Part shown: positions 1 through 19,908 of the stretch, in pieces
How positions within the stretch are numbered: position 1 is the stretch's first letter
Layout of the letters: every line of letters starts with the position of its first letter
NCBI GenBank assembly: GCA_038889235.1
Contig: JAWAHN010000003.1
Span: 173,703 to 205,702, forward strand
DNA from: Candidatus Jordarchaeales archaeon
GTDB lineage: Archaea; Asgardarchaeota; Jordiarchaeia; Jordiarchaeales; Freyrarchaeaceae
Direction of reading: 5' to 3'
DNA: 32,000 nucleotides
Made by a program: the position numbers and the translations under genes
The notes under the pieces: model-generated
Databases searched by the model: none
Told to the model about the DNA's origin: nothing
What the model saw: only the letters and a program-made list of their open reading frames with translations

Positions 1-1233
1 ATATCAGTGTAGAAGTAGGAGTCTCACTTATCCTGAACTCACCATAAGCATTGGTTGTTACTTTAATGGGGAGCACCGGATAGATGGTTTATGGCGCGTT
101 TAACGCTATTAATGGTTCAAGCATTCTCCTCTTTCAACAAAGCTTTCCTCCTCACTATTCATGAGGAGGCCAGCGTCTACATTGCCAACACAAGCATAAG
201 TAAATGCGGCTACTATTTACAGGCATTGGGGGAAACCGTGTTTCAAACGTTTCTGAGGGCGGGCTGCTTGTTAAATCAAGCAATACTGACATAATTGCTT
301 GCACCTTTACATACTGCTATGCCGGGGGTTATAGTTACCGCGAGCGGAGTCCTCATTGATGGCGTCCTCTTTAAAGACTGTGTGTATGGGGTAGTGACGA
401 AGGAGGGATGGTTAACCTGAAGGGTTGCAGTGTTGTGAACTGCAGCTATAGCTTTCATCTGTTTTCCTCCCAGAATACTGTTAAGGGGTGTGTCGTTGAG
501 GCGGCAAACGAAGGCATTGCACTGTACGAATCAGGTAACAGGATTTCCAGGTGCAACTTTTCACGCTGCAACCGCGCTGTGACCGCGTGTATGGCAGCGA
601 AAACCGCGTGGAGGGCAACAAAGTCTCGGAGGCAGACGTAGGATTCACGACTGTTGGAAAGAAGAGTGAGGTTACCGGTAACTTTGCAGAGAAGTGTAAC
701 CATTCTTCCTATGTAGTAAAATCAACAGACGGATTTTTGCGAGTAACAGTGTTGAGGGAGGAACGCATGGATTCTTGGTTGTGTTCTTCAGCCGGGAACT
801 CCAGCAACGTTGTTAGGGTGCATGCTACGGTTTCTTTTTTGTCGAGTCCTAAGGGGCGACTGTTGTTGGCAACGAAATCTCCGACTGCGAGTACGCGGTA
901 TTCTCATGGTTTTCGGAAGCTGAAACAAGCAACAACGCGTTCACATACAATATCTAAACATTTCTAATTTCACTCCTTACTTTAACCAGCTGGTCCAATC
1001 AGGCAATGTTCAACCAGACAGCCATCATGGCGCCTATCTTCTTCGCGGCTTTCATAGTCTACATGAGAGTGAAAGAGCACGTTGAGAGACGATGCAGAAC
1101 GCTCGGCACTACGGGAGCACTATTCTTTGCAGTAGCTGTAATCTCCTTCAACTCTGCATTATGGAGAGCGCGCGCCGGATTTAATTTGTCATTATTTTTC
1201 ATGTTCTACTTTGCTCAGTCAGCGCCTCCCTAA
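1..1233 (+). pseudogene. Decayed parallel beta-helix (NosD/CASH-like) surface protein with C-terminal membrane segments; 5' end outside the window, may extend to ~1500
   Basis: Repeat-like peptides lie in alternating frames: ISVEVGVSLILNS, GEHRID/VYGAFNAING, VYIANTSISKCGY, NTDIIACTFTYCYAG, VLIDGVLFKDCVYGV, NLKGCSVVNCSYSFHLFSSQNTVKG, SENRVEGNKVSEADVGF, NEISDCEYAVF. They are joined by at least 5 frameshifts and followed by hydrophobic stretches (1006-1233). Confidence 0.62.
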
Positions 1234-13347: not shown

Positions 13348-14166
13348 CTACTTGCCCTTTCTGTGTGTCGCCTCTTTCAGTTGCCGGGTGTAGCTTCTAA
13401 GGGACTCGATCATTTTCTCCTCGTCGCCCACATTCTCCTCTATTATTCTCACCAGGCGGCTTCCAACTATGGCGGCGTCAGCTCCGAGCTCGAGGACGCG
13501 GCTCACATGTTCAGGCTTCGACACGCCGAAGCCCACCGCTAGGGGGATGCGGCCCCGCGTGAAGTGGAGCGCCCTCCTGATCGTTTCAACCGTTATTTCC
13601 TGGATTTTCTCCCTTGCCCCAGTGACCCCGAAAACGGATACGAGGTAAAGGAACCCGGATGTGTAATCTACGATCTTCTTCAGCCTCTCGGTTGAAGTTG
13701 AAGGGGCTGCGAGGAATATGGTGTCGACTTCGTATGCTTCAGCGTACTCCTTGTACTCGCCTGCCTCCTCGACGGGTAGGTCCGGCACGACCACCCCGTC
13801 TACCCCTCTAGCGCTCGCCTCCTCGAAGAAGCTCTTAAGACCCATCTTGAATATTGGGTTGTAGTAGCTCAGGATAACTATCGGGGTGCGCGTCTCCTGC
13901 TTTATTTTCTCAACCATTTCGAGAACCATCCTCGGCCTAGTTCCCGCTCTGAGCGCCCTAACAGTTGCCGCCTGTATCGTTGGCCCGTCAGCTATAGGGT
14001 CTGAGAAGGGGATGCCAAGCTCCACTATGTCAGCTCCGCCTTCAACCAGTGCTCTGACCACTTCGGGCGTTGCCTGTGGTGAGGGGTCTCCGGCGGTCAC
14101 GTAAGCTATGAGGGCCCCCTCCCCCCGCTTTTCGAGCTCGGAAAACTTCCTCGCTATCTCCCTCAT
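13348..14166 (-). CDS. trpA: Tryptophan synthase alpha chain
   Basis: [53 protein letters not shown]. Confidence 0.98.
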
Positions 14167-15359
14167 ACTTCCACCCCAAGGTACCTCGCAACTACTTCGA
14201 CGTCCTTGTCCCCCCTACCCGAGAGCGTGACGACCACTATTTCATCTTTGCTCATCTCGCTGGCAAGCCTCATGGCAAACGCTAGGGCATGCGCGGGCTC
14301 AAGCGCCGGCAGAATGCCTTCAGTCCTCGAAAGCTCAAGGAATGCCTTCACAGCCTCATCGTCTGTGACGGCGACGTACCGGGCTCTTCCAATTGACTTG
14401 AGGAAAGCGTGCTCCGGTCCGACTCCCGGGTAGTCGAGGCCCGCTGATATGCTGTGCGTGGTTTTTATCTGTCCGTCCTCGTCTTGCAACACGTAGGTGA
14501 GCATCCCGTGAAACACTCCTTCTTCGCCGCCGCACAGTGAGGCCGCATGCATTCCCGTCTCTAGGCCGCGCCCCGCCGCCTCAACACCGTAAAGCTCGAC
14601 TTCCTCGTCGTCCAGGAAGGGGTAGAAGGTTCCTATGGCGTTGCTCCCCCCTCCAACGCACGCAACAAGCGCGTCTGGAAGCCTGCCTTCCTTCCTGAGG
14701 ATTTGCTCCCTCAGTTCTCGCCCTATAACGCTCTGAAACTCCCTAACTATTAAGGGGTACGGGTGTGGGCCGACCACCGAGCCTATGAGGTAGTAAGTGT
14801 TTTCGAGGTTGGTCACCCAGTCCCTTAAGGCCTCGTTTATGGCGTCTTTCAGCGTCCTCGACCCCGACTCAACCCTGTGAACCTCGGCTCCGAGGAGGCG
14901 CATCCTGAAGACGTTAAGCCTCTGCCTCTCCATGTCCTCCGCTCCCATGTATATTTCGGCTTTCAACCCTAGGACCGCGCAAGCCATCGCAGTAGCCACA
15001 CCGTGCTGCCCCGCACCCGTTTCAGCGATCACTCTGCACTTCCCCATCCTCTTAGCTAGCAAGGCTTGACCCAGCGTGTTGTTTATCTTGTGTGCTCCGC
15101 CGTGAGCTAGGTCCTCCCTCTTCAAGTATATTTTCGCGCCCCCGACGGCCTTAGTGAGGTTCTCAGCGTAGTAGAGGGGGGTTGGGCGTCCAGCGTACTC
15201 GGACAAGTAGTAGTTTAGCTCCCTCTGGAAGGAGGGGTCCGCCCTGCACTCCATGAACGCTCTCTCAAGCTCCTCTAAGGCCGCCATGAGGGTCTCTGGT
15301 ACGAACTGCCCGCCATATTTTCCAAACTTTCCACGCACAGGGTACTCGCTCAGCTTCAT
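14163..15359 (-). CDS. trpB: Tryptophan synthase beta chain (TrpB1)
   Basis: [16 protein letters not shown] (PLP Lys), [32 protein letters not shown]; ATGA overlap with trpA. Confidence 0.98.
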
Positions 15360-15991
15360 ACTCCAGCCTCCATCACGCTTCTAACAAACTCGAAAACCTT
15401 CAACCTATCCTTCACGCCCGGCTTAGCTTCAACCCCACTCGATACGTCGACTGCGAAAGGCCTGACAACTCTTATCGCTTCTTTAACGTTTCCGGCATTG
15501 AGCCCGCCGGCGAGTATCAGCGGCTTAGGGTGGACTAGGTCCCTTATCTTTCTACTAATAGACCAGTCGTGTGTCCTCCCAGTCCCACCCATCTCCCCCG
15601 GTGTGTCCACCAGTATGGCGTCGCAGTAAGAGGCCACTTCCAAGGCTAGCTCCGGCGAGGACTGAGTTGCTTGGACTGCAGCTATGAGCTTCACGCCCGC
15701 GACGGCGTCCCTCAGCTCCCCGTTAACCCGCAGTCCGTGAACTTGCACAGCGTCCGGGTTAACCAAGTCGACTATCTTCTTCAAGTGGTCTACGCTTCTA
15801 GGCACTGTGACCGCAACTGTCTCGACGAAGACTGGCGTGGCCCTCACCAGACTCCTTGCCTCGCTCGGCGCCAGACTCCTAGGGGAGGAGGGGACATCGA
15901 CCACGAAGCCTACGGCGTCTACCCCTGCCTCTACAACCATGTGGAGGTCCTCGACGGATTTCACACCGCAGATCTTCACCCTAGTCCTCAT
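15356..15991 (-). CDS. trpF: Phosphoribosylanthranilate isomerase
   Basis: [37 protein letters not shown]. Confidence 0.97.
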
Positions 15992-16764
15992 AAGGCTTCC
16001 ACCAGCTCCCTAACCTTATCCCTAACACTTGCAGCGGTCATTATTGATGTTCCAACGAGGAACGCTCTAGCGCCGCACGAGTAGAGAAACCTCACGTCTT
16101 CCGGGCTGCGTATCCCGCTTTCGCTAACTATAATCCGGCTCCCCGTGTATCCCGACAACACCTTTCTGGTAACGTCCAAGTCCACTTTCAGCGTCCTCAA
16201 ATCCCTGTTGTTGACGCCAATCATGTCAGCATCATAGCCGAGCGCTGATATAAACTCGTTCTTAGAGTGGACTTCCAGTAGCACCTCCAGCCCCCTGCTG
16301 TGCGCGTACTCTATCATGTCCTCCAGCTTCTCATCACAATACCCTCTCTCGAAAACAGGGTATATCAGTAGCACAGTATTAGCTCCAGCCTTGAAAGCGG
16401 CGTCGATCTGAACGGGGCTCACAACAATGTCCTTCATTAATACAGGAACCTTAACAGCCCGCCTTACCTCCACCAACGCGCTCACTGAGCCGTGGAAGTG
16501 CTTTGGCTCCGTCAGCACGGATATCCCAACAGCGCCGCCTTCTTCCATCTCCCTTGCGAGCTCAGCTGGCCTTCGACCTTTGTCCAAGACCCCCTGGGAG
16601 GGGGAGGCTGGTTTCACCTCCGATATTATCGCTGCCTTAGTGCAGGAGAGTATTGCCTCCTCGAGGCTGAGCCTTTCAGCTGGGACGCACCTAACCTCGT
16701 CGTAGAACCCCTCTTCCACGGTTTTCCTGGCATCCCTTGCGAGTACGTCTAGGAAGTCACCCAT
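15988..16764 (-). CDS. trpC: Indole-3-glycerol phosphate synthase
   Basis: ISEVKPASPS, ISVLTEPKHF.GS, VLMKD, LLEVH, GVNNRDL, SESGI. True start is probably ATG 16764, overlapping the trpD stop, rather than 16815. Confidence 0.96.
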   Translation of the reverse strand: MGDFLDVLARDARKTVEEGFYDEVRCVPAERLSLEEAILSCTKAAIISEVKPASPSQGVLDKGRRPAELAREMEEGGAVGISVLTEPKHFHGSVSALVEVRRAVKVPVLMKDIVVSPVQIDAAFKAGANTVLLIYPVFERGYCDEKLEDMIEYAHSRGLEVLLEVHSKNEFISALGYDADMIGVNNRDLRTLKVDLDVTRKVLSGYTGSRIIVSESGIRSPEDVRFLYSCGARAFLVGTSIMTAASVRDKVRELVEAL

Positions 16765-17815
16765 GTCTCCGCTCCAGCTCCTCGAGTTTTGAAACGTCTC
16801 CACCGGAGAAGGCAACCATTTCTTTCAGCTTCTTGTAGGCTGCCCCGCTCCTAAGAGACTCCTCGGCGAGCTCGACTCCGTGAGATAGACTGTCAGCTTT
16901 TCCTCCCACTAGTATGCCTGCAGCGGCGTTCATGAGCACCATGTTCCTCCTGGGATCCCTCTTAGGCAGAAGGTCGTTGAGTATCTTGAAGGTTAGCTCG
17001 GCGCTCCCGTCCGGGTCGAGCCCGGCCACCTCTTCGGGTCTCGCTGCTTCGAAGCCGAAGTCTTTGGGGGTAACGTTGAAAGTCGAAATCTCTCCGTCCC
17101 TCAACCATGCTACCATCGTTTCTCCAGTCACTGATATCTCGTCGATTCCGTCCAGCCCGTGTACTACCATCGCTTCAACGCAGCCAAGCCCTTTTAGCAC
17201 CTCGGCCATGGGTAAAACCCACTCCCTGCCGAAGACCCCGAGGACCTGGGCGTTTGCCCCAGCAGGGTTAGTTAGAGGCCCTAGAATGTTGAACACTGTT
17301 CTTATTCCTATTTCCCTCCTTGGCCCTGCAACGTGTTTCATCGCTGGGTGGAAGTTCGGGGCGAACATGAAGCCTATCCCTACGTGCTCCACCATTCTCT
17401 CCACTTTCTCCGGCTCGACGTTGAGGTTAAATCCTAGCTTTTCAAGCACGTCAGCGCTCCCGCTCTTACCCGTGACCGACCGGTTCCCGTGCTTAGCGAC
17501 GGGAATACCGGCCCCAGCGACTATGAATGCTGACGCCGTGCTCACGTTGAATGTTTTAATGCGGTCTCCTCCTGTTCCACAAGTGTCGACGAGCCGGCCG
17601 CTCACCTTGGGATTTATCCTCCGGCAGAACTCACGCATGACCGAGGCGAACGCGGTGATCTCCTCAACAGTTTCCCTTTTCATCCTCAGCGCTGTTAGGA
17701 AGGCTCCTATCTGTGCTCCCGTCGCCTCGCCCGACATTATCTTCTTCATGGCGTCACGCGCTTCTTCGCGCGTTAGGCTTACGCCCTCAACAAGCTTCTG
17801 AATGTACTCCTTCAC
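16757..17815 (-). CDS. trpD: Anthranilate phosphoribosyltransferase
   Basis: DTCGTGGD, FNVST, KHGNRSVTGKSGSAD, FAPNFHPAM, GPLTNP, DEIS. Confidence 0.98.
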   Translation of the reverse strand: MKEYIQKLVEGVSLTREEARDAMKKIMSGEATGAQIGAFLTALRMKRETVEEITAFASVMREFCRRINPKVSGRLVDTCGTGGDRIKTFNVSTASAFIVAGAGIPVAKHGNRSVTGKSGSADVLEKLGFNLNVEPEKVERMVEHVGIGFMFAPNFHPAMKHVAGPRREIGIRTVFNILGPLTNPAGANAQVLGVFGREWVLPMAEVLKGLGCVEAMVVHGLDGIDEISVTGETMVAWLRDGEISTFNVTPKDFGFEAARPEEVAGLDPDGSAELTFKILNDLLPKRDPRRNMVLMNAAAGILVGGKADSLSHGVELAEESLRSGAAYKKLKEMVAFSGGDVSKLEELERRHG

Positions 17816-17818
17816 ATT

Positions 17819-18403
17819 CTAACCTCCTTCAAGGAAGTTCTTTATGATAAGCTTCCCGCAGGAAGTGAGTATGGACTCGGGGTGGAATTGGACCCCCTCA
17901 ATCGGGTACTCGACGTGCCTCACCCCCATAATCTCCCCGTCGTCAAGAGACTCCGCTGTGACCTTCAGGCAGCCCGGTATGCTCGACTTGTCTCCTACGA
18001 GCGAGTGGTACCTTGTAGCCTCAAAGGGGTTGTCGACCCCCCTGAAGACCCCTCTGCCGTCGTGTTTAACCATGCTAGTCTTACCGTGCATCAACCTCTT
18101 CGCCCGGACTATCCTCCCGCCGAAAACATGTATTATCCCCTGGTGTCCGAGACATACACCAAGTATGGGAGTATAGGGTCCAATGTGCCGTATTATCTCT
18201 GAGCAGACACCGAAGTACCTCGGGTTCTCAGGCGTCCCTGGCCCAGGCGAGAGAATCACCCTGTCTGGGCGGAGCTTGAGGACGCGCTTCAACGTCAACT
18301 GGTCATTTCTGAACACGAGCGGTTTTCCTCCAAGCTCGCCCACGTACTGAACGAGGTTGTAGACGAACGAGTCGTAGTTGTCGACAACCAAAACCTTCAG
18401 CAA
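17819..18403 (-). CDS. trpG: Anthranilate synthase component II (glutamine amidotransferase)
   Basis: DNYDSF, SPGPG, LGVCLGHQ, RYHSL, QFHPES. Confidence 0.98.
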   Translation of the reverse strand: MLKVLVVDNYDSFVYNLVQYVGELGGKPLVFRNDQLTLKRVLKLRPDRVILSPGPGTPENPRYFGVCSEIIRHIGPYTPILGVCLGHQGIIHVFGGRIVRAKRLMHGKTSMVKHDGRGVFRGVDNPFEATRYHSLVGDKSSIPGCLKVTAESLDDGEIMGVRHVEYPIEGVQFHPESILTSCGKLIIKNFLEGG

Positions 18404-18406
18404 TTT

Positions 18407-19723
18407 TCACGCCTCCGCGAGCTCCAGGGCTTTTAGCAGAGCCTTAGCCTTATGCTCGGTTTCAAGCCACTCCCTTTCGGGGATGGAGTCTGCAACTATT
18501 CCGGCTCCAGCCTGTATGAAGCAGCGCTCACCATCAGCTACAAGAGTCCTTATCGTTATCGCGAAGTCAGAGTTACCGTTAAACGAGAAGTACCCCACCC
18601 CCCCAGCGTAGGGCCCCCTCCTCGACGGCTCACACTCCTCTATTATCTCCATCGCCCTAACTTTTGGAGCCCCCGAGACGGTTCCAGCTGGGAAGACCGC
18701 CCTTAGAACATCGTAGCAGTCGCAGCCGTCCCTCAGCTCACCCACCACCCTTGAAACGATGTGCTGCACGTGGCTGTACTTGTGTATCACCATGAACTCG
18801 GGCACGTGTACGCTTCCAAACTTCGCAACACGGCCAACGTCGTTCCTCGCGAGGTCGACGAGCATAACGTGTTCAGCCCTCTCCTTGGGGTCAGCGAGAA
18901 GACCCCTCGCAAGCTCCTCGTCCTCAGCCTCGGTAGCCCCCCTAGGCCTGGTTCCGGCTATCGGGAATGTTTCGATAACCCCACCCTCAACCCTCACAAG
19001 CATCTCGGGGCTCGATCCTATTATCCTCCGGGAGCCCATCTTGAGGAAGTACATGTAAGGAGAGGGGTTTATCTTTCTAAGCTCCAGGTAGAAGCGGGCT
19101 AGGTCCCCTCTAACCTTGAAGTCGTACCTCCTGGAAAGAACTACCTGAAATATGTCGCCCGACGCTATGTACTCCTTCGCCCGCAAAACCCTCTCCTCAT
19201 ACTCCTCCTTGCTCAGGTTGGCCTTCGGAAAAGTGAATGACAGGTGCTCTCCCCCATCCCACTCATCGTCTGCAAGTTCAAGCAGTTCGTCAGACCTATC
19301 CTCGCCCCTATAAACGTAGATGGCCTCGTTTCTCTCATGGTCGAAAACCAGCACGTCGTCATATATGCCGAACTCTATGTCTGGGAACTTGGGCTCGTCC
19401 TCAGCTATGCGGGGCAGCTTCTCCCAGTATCTCACAGCGTCATAGGAAATGTATCCTACAGCTCCCCCGGAAAACCTGAGGTCTGAACAGCCTGGCTCTC
19501 TTCCAACAATCCTCCTCAGCGTTTCGAGAGGATCCTTAACCTTGAAACTGGCTTCCTCCCCGCAGCTTAAGTCTTGGAGGAGGGCTTCGCCGTCCTTCAC
19601 CGTGTAAAGCTGCCTAGGGTTGAAGCCTATGAAGGAGAAGCGTGCTATTCTTTTGGGGCCCTCAACGGACTCGAGCAGGTAAGCGTACTCGCATTTTTCT
19701 TGTAATGAAAGGAAAACTTGCAC
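18407..19723 (-). CDS. trpE: Anthranilate synthase component I; 5' end uncertain (frame open to 19822 but no canonical start above GTG 19723)
   Basis: [85 protein letters not shown]. Confidence 0.96.
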
Positions 19724-19766
19724 AGGGGGTTTTGATACTGGGAGACGTTTGCAGTGCAGCCTCCTC

Positions 19767-19826
19767 TTAACTAGAGGTGCTGCTAGGCGCGTGAAGCCTC
19801 TCTGTAAGCCAAACGCGACCCCTCAC
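19767..19826 (-). other. 19-codon Trp-containing leader ORF (MRGRVWLTERLHAPSSTSS*) overlapping the start-less 5' extension of trpE
   Basis: GGAGG (19838-19834) + 7 nt + GTG, the same architecture as the trpD start (GGAGGttagaatGTGA vs GGAGGctcgaatGTGA). Single TGG at codon 6 (19811-19809); TAA at 19769-19767. Confidence 0.5.
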
Positions 19827-19875
19827 ATTCGAGCCTCCGTTCAGGCGCAAGCTGAAAAACTAGTCATCAATGAAC

Positions 19876-19908
19876 TATTTAAATCTTTTTTGTACAAAAA
19901 TGTACATT
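19876..19908 (-). promoter_or_regulatory. trp operon promoter with tandem TGTACA (TRP-box-like) operator
   Basis: TATA TTTAAATA (19883-19876) with an A-rich BRE. Palindromes TTTTTGTACAAAAA (19887-19900) and AATGTACATT (19899-19908) give two TGTACA boxes 10 bp apart, abutting the BRE. Confidence 0.65.

Follow-up and report, generated by a model that had tools for sequence, protein, structure and literature searches.

A two-frame leader at the start of trpE in Jordarchaeales and other archaea, a candidate tryptophan-sensing +1 ribosomal frameshift

The window analysed here is a stretch of 32,000 nucleotides from a Candidatus Jordarchaeales archaeon (contig JAWAHN010000003.1), which carries on its minus strand a complete tryptophan operon in the order trpE-G-D-C-F-B-A. 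The element under study lies at the beginning of trpE, where the only start codon preceded by a Shine-Dalgarno (SD) sequence opens a reading frame different from that of TrpE. From sequence comparison, trpE is likely expressed via a programmed +1 ribosomal frameshift that would sense the charging of tRNA-Trp. This reading had been proposed in a first-pass annotation of the window, made from its sequence alone, and is supported by the comparative evidence presented below.

The start of trpE in the window

The product of trpE was considered as anthranilate synthase component I on the basis of its two domains (Pfam Anth_synt_I_N, E = 5.7e-36; Chorismate_bind, E = 4.3e-97), its alignment to PDB entry 1qdl (E = 4e-108) and the presence of trpG and the remaining operon genes after it. 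The coordinates of all features are given in Table 1.

The trpE frame extends 33 codons above GTG 19723, which an open reading frame (ORF) caller would pick as the start, and these codons include no ATG, GTG or TTG. Further upstream the frame is closed by TGA 19825-19823, which overlaps GTG 19826, and it is open from there onward. GTG 19826 is preceded by GGAGG in the same layout as the trpD start; this sequence is complementary to the 16S 3' end of the same genome (..GGATCACCTCCT) and is found 7-8 nt before GTG 19826, trpG, trpD and trpB, and not before GTG 19723. The frame opened by GTG 19826 translates to MRGRVWLTERLHAPSSTSS*, ending at TAA 19769. Its leader sequence is GTG AGG GGT CGC GTT TGG C, the sixth codon (19811-19809) being the sole Trp codon, and the trpE frame is +1 relative to it. 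A skip of one base at GTT_TGG would place the tRNA of the peptidyl site (P site) on UUU (19813-19811) with GGC (19810-19808) as the next codon, which leads into the trpE frame; the predicted product consists of MRGRV followed by the +1-frame residues, for a total of 472 aa. The open 33 codons, the SD layout, the one-base skip at the single Trp codon and the position of the internal GAGGGG had all been described in the first-pass annotation, and each was found again in the sequence. The third-frame ORF that it listed from TTG 19812 (MAYREASRA*) also exists and has no role in the system.

Initiation of TrpE at GTG 19723 is unlikely, because this codon lacks an SD sequence, is not kept as a start in relatives (the equivalent codon is ATG in one of them, locus L032, and a non-start codon in most) and would give a protein without beta strand 1. 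The structure of the +1-frame product was modelled with AlphaFold2 using 62 relatives (mean predicted local distance difference test score, pLDDT, of 89.4). In the model, residues 18-23 form a beta strand and residues 29-39 form helix 1, with GTG 19723 (residue 30) inside the helix; mean pLDDT rises from 68 in residues 11-20 to 92 in residues 21-30. Alignments of the same product to PDB chains begin at residue 10 for 7pi1 and at residue 15 for 7qu9, the strand 1 residues being aligned to the N-terminal residues of 7pi1, and homologues that lack the leader motif described in the next section have canonical ATG starts upstream of strand 1. By the model and these alignments, the extension upstream of Val30 is part of the TrpE fold. 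In many archaeal genomes, gene callers can be expected to cut TrpE short or to set its start at the wrong place, as in the window, where the called protein of 438 aa would lack the first strand.

Table 1. Features of the trpE locus (window coordinates) and base usage at leader positions (counted from the first base of the start codon) in the 70 motif-bearing loci
Feature	Position	Strand	Remark
Two TGTACA boxes	19906-19901 and 19896-19891	minus	spaced by 4 nt (period of 10 nt), immediately upstream of the TATA box
TATA-like box TTTAAATA	19876..19883	minus	position kept in relatives
Shine-Dalgarno GGAGG	19834..19838	minus	7 nt before GTG 19826
GTG, proposed true trpE initiation codon (zero frame)	19824..19826	minus	only SD-preceded start upstream of trpE
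Zero-frame leader ORF	19767..19826	minus	19 codons and TAA 19769-19767; predicted product if no shift occurs
Internal SD-like GAGGGG	19819..19824	minus	4 nt 5' of P-site GTT; candidate frameshift stimulator
Proposed shift site GUU_UGG_C	19808..19814	minus	P-site GUU 19814-19812, A-site UGG 19811-19809
+1 frame, TrpE body	18407..19810	minus	467 codons, GGC 19810 to stop 18409-18407
Codons of beta strand 1 (residues 18-23, LHCKRL)	19742..19759	minus	upstream of GTG 19723
GTG an ORF caller would pick as trpE start	19721..19723	minus	probably the internal Val30 codon
trpE ORF	18407-19723	minus	438 aa counted from GTG 19723
trpG, trpD, trpC, trpF, trpB, trpA	13348..18403	minus	ORF coordinates and Pfam
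Purine-rich SD	leader -13 to -9		
Start codon	leader 0-2		ATG 50, GTG 16, TTG 4
RGG	leader 3-5		
AT	leader 7-8		60 and 62 of 70
Free position	leader 12		G37, C22, T7, A4
TTTGG	leader 13-17		invariant, 70/70
Variable positions	leader 18 onward		

Conservation of the leader in archaeal trpE loci

The comparison was performed on 84 species-level trpE loci, comprising the window, its Asgard relatives and named metagenome-assembled genomes (MAGs) from a wider scan, in which 185,579 species genomes gave 80 close, named TrpE loci. The layout made of a start codon, four codons and N-TT-TGG was found in 70 of the 84 loci, with the consensus start-RGG-NAT-NRY-NTT-TGG. Its carriers belong to Jordarchaeia and Freyarchaeota (Asgard), many Bathyarchaeia and some Nitrososphaeria; the loci of the wider scan came from these groups (Jordarchaeales included) and from other Thermoproteota. 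Conservation of the Trp codon, a check that the first-pass annotation had put forward, held throughout, TGG being invariant, always codon 6 and always after NTT. Between this codon and a conserved LLES-like motif, the trpE frame is free of stops in 70/70 loci, and both the zero frame and the third frame in 0/70.

The ten closest genomes with trpE (four of the window family, the window included, and six of a second family of the same order) all share the leader with SD, start, four codons and TGG, and their trpE frame is open for 470-474 codons, as it is in one genome of a third Asgard family. When the pattern GGAGG-N5-10-RTGRGG-N6-STTTGG was searched in 400 Asgard genomes, 14 matches were obtained, of which 11 lie directly 5' of trpE, a fourth Asgard family being represented among them; the other three are in unrelated sequence with no trpE downstream. 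The reversed pattern, used as a control on the same genomes, gave nine scattered matches. The association of the pattern with trpE is far beyond chance. One of the genomes (G004; same family, other genus, 94% complete) yielded no TrpE with a protein query, and its sole pattern match (L022) falls in unrelated sequence that is not followed by trpE; this relative may lack the trp operon.

The codon preceding TGG is always NTT (Val, Leu, Ile or Phe) and never NTC, NTA or NTG, and in the trpE frame Phe is always encoded by TTT and never by TTC, so that the coding need of neither frame alone accounts for the site. An invariant TTTGG after a free base fits the rule expected if the P-site tRNA shifts from NUU to UUU with UGG waiting in the A site. 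N_UUU, the arrangement that permits re-pairing of the CUU_U type, is present in 70/70 loci; CUU itself is the P-site codon in 22 of them, and the GUU_U of the window re-pairs at two of three positions. Upstream of the site, G-R-G-G is nearly invariant at leader positions 2-5. One sub-lineage has GGTGAY instead, at a distance of 3 nt from the P-site codon, and its SD before the start is in most members of GGTGAT type. The internal element tends to match the SD type of its own lineage, with GRGG accompanying GGAGG-like SDs and GGTGAY accompanying GGTGAT-like ones; since the GGTGAY group is a single clade, this trend is no more than suggestive.

In-frame derivatives of the layout occur naturally. 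Locus L054 lacks one G of TGG (GTTT-GC against GTTTGGC) relative to five sisters with the two-frame arrangement; it reads from the equivalent GTG straight into TrpE, and the downstream sequence aligns with that of the sisters. Locus L048 keeps ATG AGG AAT AAC ATT TGG in frame with trpE. The other motif-less homologues have a canonical ATG, which in most cases precedes strand 1 by 10-25 codons and in L079 directly adjoins it, broadly at the location of the leader start. In a tree built with FastTree and rooted with three distant Asgard TrpEs (one 5'-truncated locus being uninformative), all motif-bearing TrpEs fall in one large clade and the motif-less ones, L054 and L048 included, are scattered inside it; this nesting suggests repeated secondary loss.

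Two loci show variants of the leader: in L107 (~1190-1240) the trpE frame is -1 and not +1 relative to the leader, and an in-frame TTG lies inside TTTTGG; in L110 (~1190-1250) the same motif has five codons instead of four between the start and TGG. Leaders of the archaeal type were also found before trpE on three MAG contigs with bacterial labels, namely L038 (DATKTP010000127.1, Deferrimicrobium), L094 (DASQZS010000203.1, Acidoferrum) and L111 (DATIYC010000167.1, Acidiferrales). L038 is apparently the same locus as L029, from a genome (G141) placed by the search tool in the phylum of the window, which suggests mis-binning or mislabelling.

Proposed mechanism and competing explanations

In the proposed mechanism, a ribosome bound to GGAGG would initiate at GTG 19826 and make Met-Arg-Gly-Arg-Val, after which the P site would contain tRNA-Val on GUU, and the aminoacyl site (A site) the sole Trp codon, UGG. 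With plentiful Trp-tRNA, UGG would be decoded and translation would stop at TAA 19769, giving a peptide of 19 residues and zero TrpE. With scarce Trp-tRNA, the A site would stay empty and the P-site tRNA could re-pair one base forward on UUU; GGC would then be read in the trpE frame, and TrpE of 472 aa (MRGRV-GLQR...) would be produced. The tightly spaced trpGDCFBA genes would probably be switched on at the same time, their translation being probably coupled to that of trpE to judge from the spacing. The SD-like GAGGGG just upstream of the slip codon, which could pair with the 16S tail (..GGATCACCTCCT), probably stimulates the slip.

Several observations weigh against this mechanism. A tRNA-Val(GAC) on UUU leaves a mismatch at the first position, and CUU, as in prfB, re-pairs better; the caution to this effect in the first-pass annotation stands for this genome. 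The distance to the P-site codon is 4 nt for the SD-like element and 6 nt for the conserved GRGG core, against 3 nt in prfB. Only one Trp codon is present in the leader. Since the 70 loci are related, counts made on them overstate the number of independent observations. The variable leader positions (6, 9 and 12) recur every third base in register with the trpE frame (GGN ATN), which the mechanism does not account for; this pattern may come from bulged anti-SD pairing or from constraints of the E site, the preceding codon or the tRNA. Lastly, in 20 of the 70 loci at least one in-frame TTG, GTG or ATG precedes strand 1; these candidates are scattered and mostly TTG, and the bases printed upstream of them show no SD of GGAGG type.

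Leader positions 4-12 (window 19822-19814) look as if they coded for Gly-Ile/Val-x, though TGA or TAG closes the trpE frame in many loci. The conserved ATN codon in the trpE frame was considered as an initiation site and rejected, since such a stop precedes the site in many loci. A slip of tRNA-Trp after decoding of UGG was likewise rejected, since GGN cannot re-pair with a CCA anticodon.

Among the competing explanations, the best surviving is a +1 shift that is required for TrpE and constitutive, serving a fixed low output or the compensation of an ancient indel, with no response to tryptophan. The tryptophan response of the mechanism above is something that we infer, and the promoter TGTACA boxes could supply all of the regulation. 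Any slow codon would however serve a constitutive shift, and the A-site codon is UGG in 70/70 loci, in the gene of the first enzyme of the tryptophan pathway. Moreover, lineages have lost the shift by simple indels, so that a merely compensated indel would not persist across lineages so divergent. This explanation is considered improbable.

A somewhat poorer case can be made for an independent tryptophan-sensing upstream ORF, with TrpE starting at GTG 19723 or at a non-canonical codon under occlusion or re-initiation control and with no frameshift; a Trp-responsive upstream ORF controlling re-initiation was among the alternatives of the first-pass annotation. In Bacteria, the textbook solution is a leader peptide with Trp codons, and a start codon is present at the position of GTG 19723 in the window and as ATG in L032. 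Against it, 28 of the 70 loci have no in-frame ATG, GTG or TTG before LLES, and in 22 others, the window included, an in-frame start is found only within or after strand 1, where the SD-less GTG 19723 itself lies. In the sub-lineage with ATG GGT GAY YTA GTT TGG, the trpE frame has TAG directly before TTT, and it can therefore be entered only at or after TTT. The zero-frame ORFs measure 7-32 codons in relatives, neither their stop position nor their C-terminal sequence being conserved. From the slip site onward, all 70 loci have an open trpE frame. An upstream ORF would also leave the invariant TT before TGG unexplained, and the in-frame derivatives use the start of the leader. The re-initiation alternative did not survive these comparisons and is given little weight.

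Correction of the frame in the RNA, by slippage of RNA polymerase on the T run or by editing of the transcript, is very improbable: a short T run does exist at the site (TTT, and TTTT in a few loci), but it has only three bases when known transcriptional slippage needs runs of ~6-9 identical bases, and the invariant GG and Trp codon, the SD-like element and the free position 12 would be left unexplained. The remaining alternative is an indel from assembly or sequencing, or a pseudogene in decay, confined to this MAG; a simple 1-nt indel had been raised in the first-pass annotation. It is effectively refuted by the comparative data and has almost no probability left. The trpE ORF is not continuous in the relatives either: 70 species-level genomes that were assembled independently, the closed chromosomes CP147778.1 and CP070759.1 among them, show the same discontinuity. 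The downstream ORF is also intact and folds with a pLDDT of 89.

The hungry-codon +1 frameshift at N_UUU_GG can be proposed, as a probable reading for the wider group, to be an ancient switch that is required to turn on tryptophan biosynthesis across a large clade of archaeal TrpEs (Jordarchaeia, Freyarchaeota and others in Asgard; Bathyarchaeia; some Nitrososphaeria), standing in Asgard beside a TrpY-like promoter operator. It would be the first programmed +1 frameshift known in Archaea and the first natural amino-acid operon controlled by frameshifting at its own codon.

A crude scan of the genome of the window (G000) for an SD-preceded start with a short ORF and a long start-less +1 ORF gave 40 raw candidates, trpE being recovered; the sole other candidate with GTT_TGG (C3:461667) does not resemble a coding sequence and probably lies antisense to a different gene. 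A scan of this kind is no evidence that further sites are absent. ARAGORN detected seven tRNA genes in the same genome (95% complete), or 14 with the intron search, tRNA-Val(GAC) among them; tRNA-Trp was not detected by this tool, intron search included, which is a limit of the tool and not an absence. Many tRNAs of G000 probably carry introns or unusual structures missed by ARAGORN.

Relation to known systems, promoter layer and operon context

The trpE leader resembles bacterial prfB in that a short zero-frame ORF is followed by an overlapping long +1 ORF without an initiation signal of its own, in that an NUU P-site codon followed by U allows re-pairing on UUU with an SD-like purine tract a few nt upstream, and in that the decoding rate at the A site would report the level of the pathway product. 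It differs in several respects: prfB (CUU_UGA_C) senses the stop UGA via release factor 2, whereas the trpE site has the sense codon UGG in all loci; the shift would occur at codons 5/6, right after initiation, in an archaeal host; and the feedback would be closed by the end-product of the enzyme pathway and not by the encoded protein itself. The SD-like spacing is 3 nt in prfB and 4-6 nt in most lineages of trpE. The site would work like prfB and is not a member of the prfB family.

Slippage of a P-site tRNA by +1 on CUU-type codons while the A site awaits a scarce aminoacyl-tRNA is also the feature shared with yeast Ty1 (CUU_AGG_C) and with 'hungry codon' frameshifting (Gallant and Lindsley, cited in PMC8211752). 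Downstream RNA structure is unneeded in these systems, and none was found in the trpE leader. The scarcity in Ty1 is that of a constitutively rare tRNA-Arg, whereas that proposed for trpE would arise only under Trp starvation, with a biosynthetic operon under its control; in E. coli, hungry-codon shifting was shown on artificial constructs and not as a conserved natural switch.

As in trpL attenuation, a ribosome on the Trp codon of the leader would read tRNA-Trp charging and set the expression of trpE and the downstream genes. The output of trpL is however transcription termination, and that proposed here a change of reading frame; the trpE leader has a single Trp codon, without alternative hairpins. 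No significant RNA structure was found in the leader (fold z-score -1.17), and no Rfam family matched it at E <= 1; attenuator, riboswitch and T-box readings of the leader were rejected on these two results. A co-transcribed tRNA-Trp was rejected as well, since no tRNA gene was detected in the window by ARAGORN.

The sole programmed frameshift reported in Archaea according to PMC8211752 (2021) is that of Saccharolobus solfataricus fucA1, a -1 shift, with none of the +1 type. That gene also lies in two overlapping frames and needs slippage for the full-length enzyme. Its shift occurs on an A_AAA_AAT heptamer, with no known metabolic sensing and in a single species, whereas that proposed for trpE is +1, at a Trp codon, and kept across phyla. 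A full-text literature search returned no description of an archaeal trpE or tryptophan frameshift, and a trpE frameshift is unmentioned in the recoding reviews PMC5009743 (2016) and PMC8211752 and in the GeneTack survey PMC3711429. The elements new here are the Jordarchaeales instance, the position-by-position re-pairing rule, the control provided by a one-base deletion, the argument from strand 1 and the link between SD type and internal element.

If the mechanism holds, the choice of reading frame in the opening codons of the first pathway gene would depend directly on how far one tRNA is charged, and hungry-codon frameshifting would be used in nature as a conserved switch. The site measures ~30 nt, is portable and might serve as a tryptophan-responsive translational switch.

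The control of archaeal biosynthetic operons by amino acids is poorly understood, and to our knowledge only the TrpY repressor is known for tryptophan. The two TGTACA boxes of the window, which we take to resemble the TRP box of TrpY, may form a layer of transcriptional control. The arrangement of TGTACA, spacer and TGTACA with TTTAAATA recurs in many relatives and, as in Methanothermobacter with its TrpY/TRP-box system, the boxes abut the TATA box; it was seen 5' of TTTAAATA at L004-L008, L054, L056, L061, L068, L084, L092, L095 and L098, and 5' of trpE it is kept across Asgard, Bathyarchaeia and Nitrososphaeria loci. This suggests a common TrpY-like operator acting on top of the frameshift; such protein-based control would form a separate layer above the translational one. 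With the usual archaeal promoter geometry, the transcript would start ~25 nt downstream of the TATA-like box, and the mRNA leader would therefore include the SD and GTG 19826.

The junctions of the operon are 3-nt gaps or 4-nt overlaps, with the exception of trpC/trpD. The listed trpC ORF (TTG 16815) runs 59 nt into the end of trpD (window 16757-16815) and has no SD; the true trpC start is probably further downstream.

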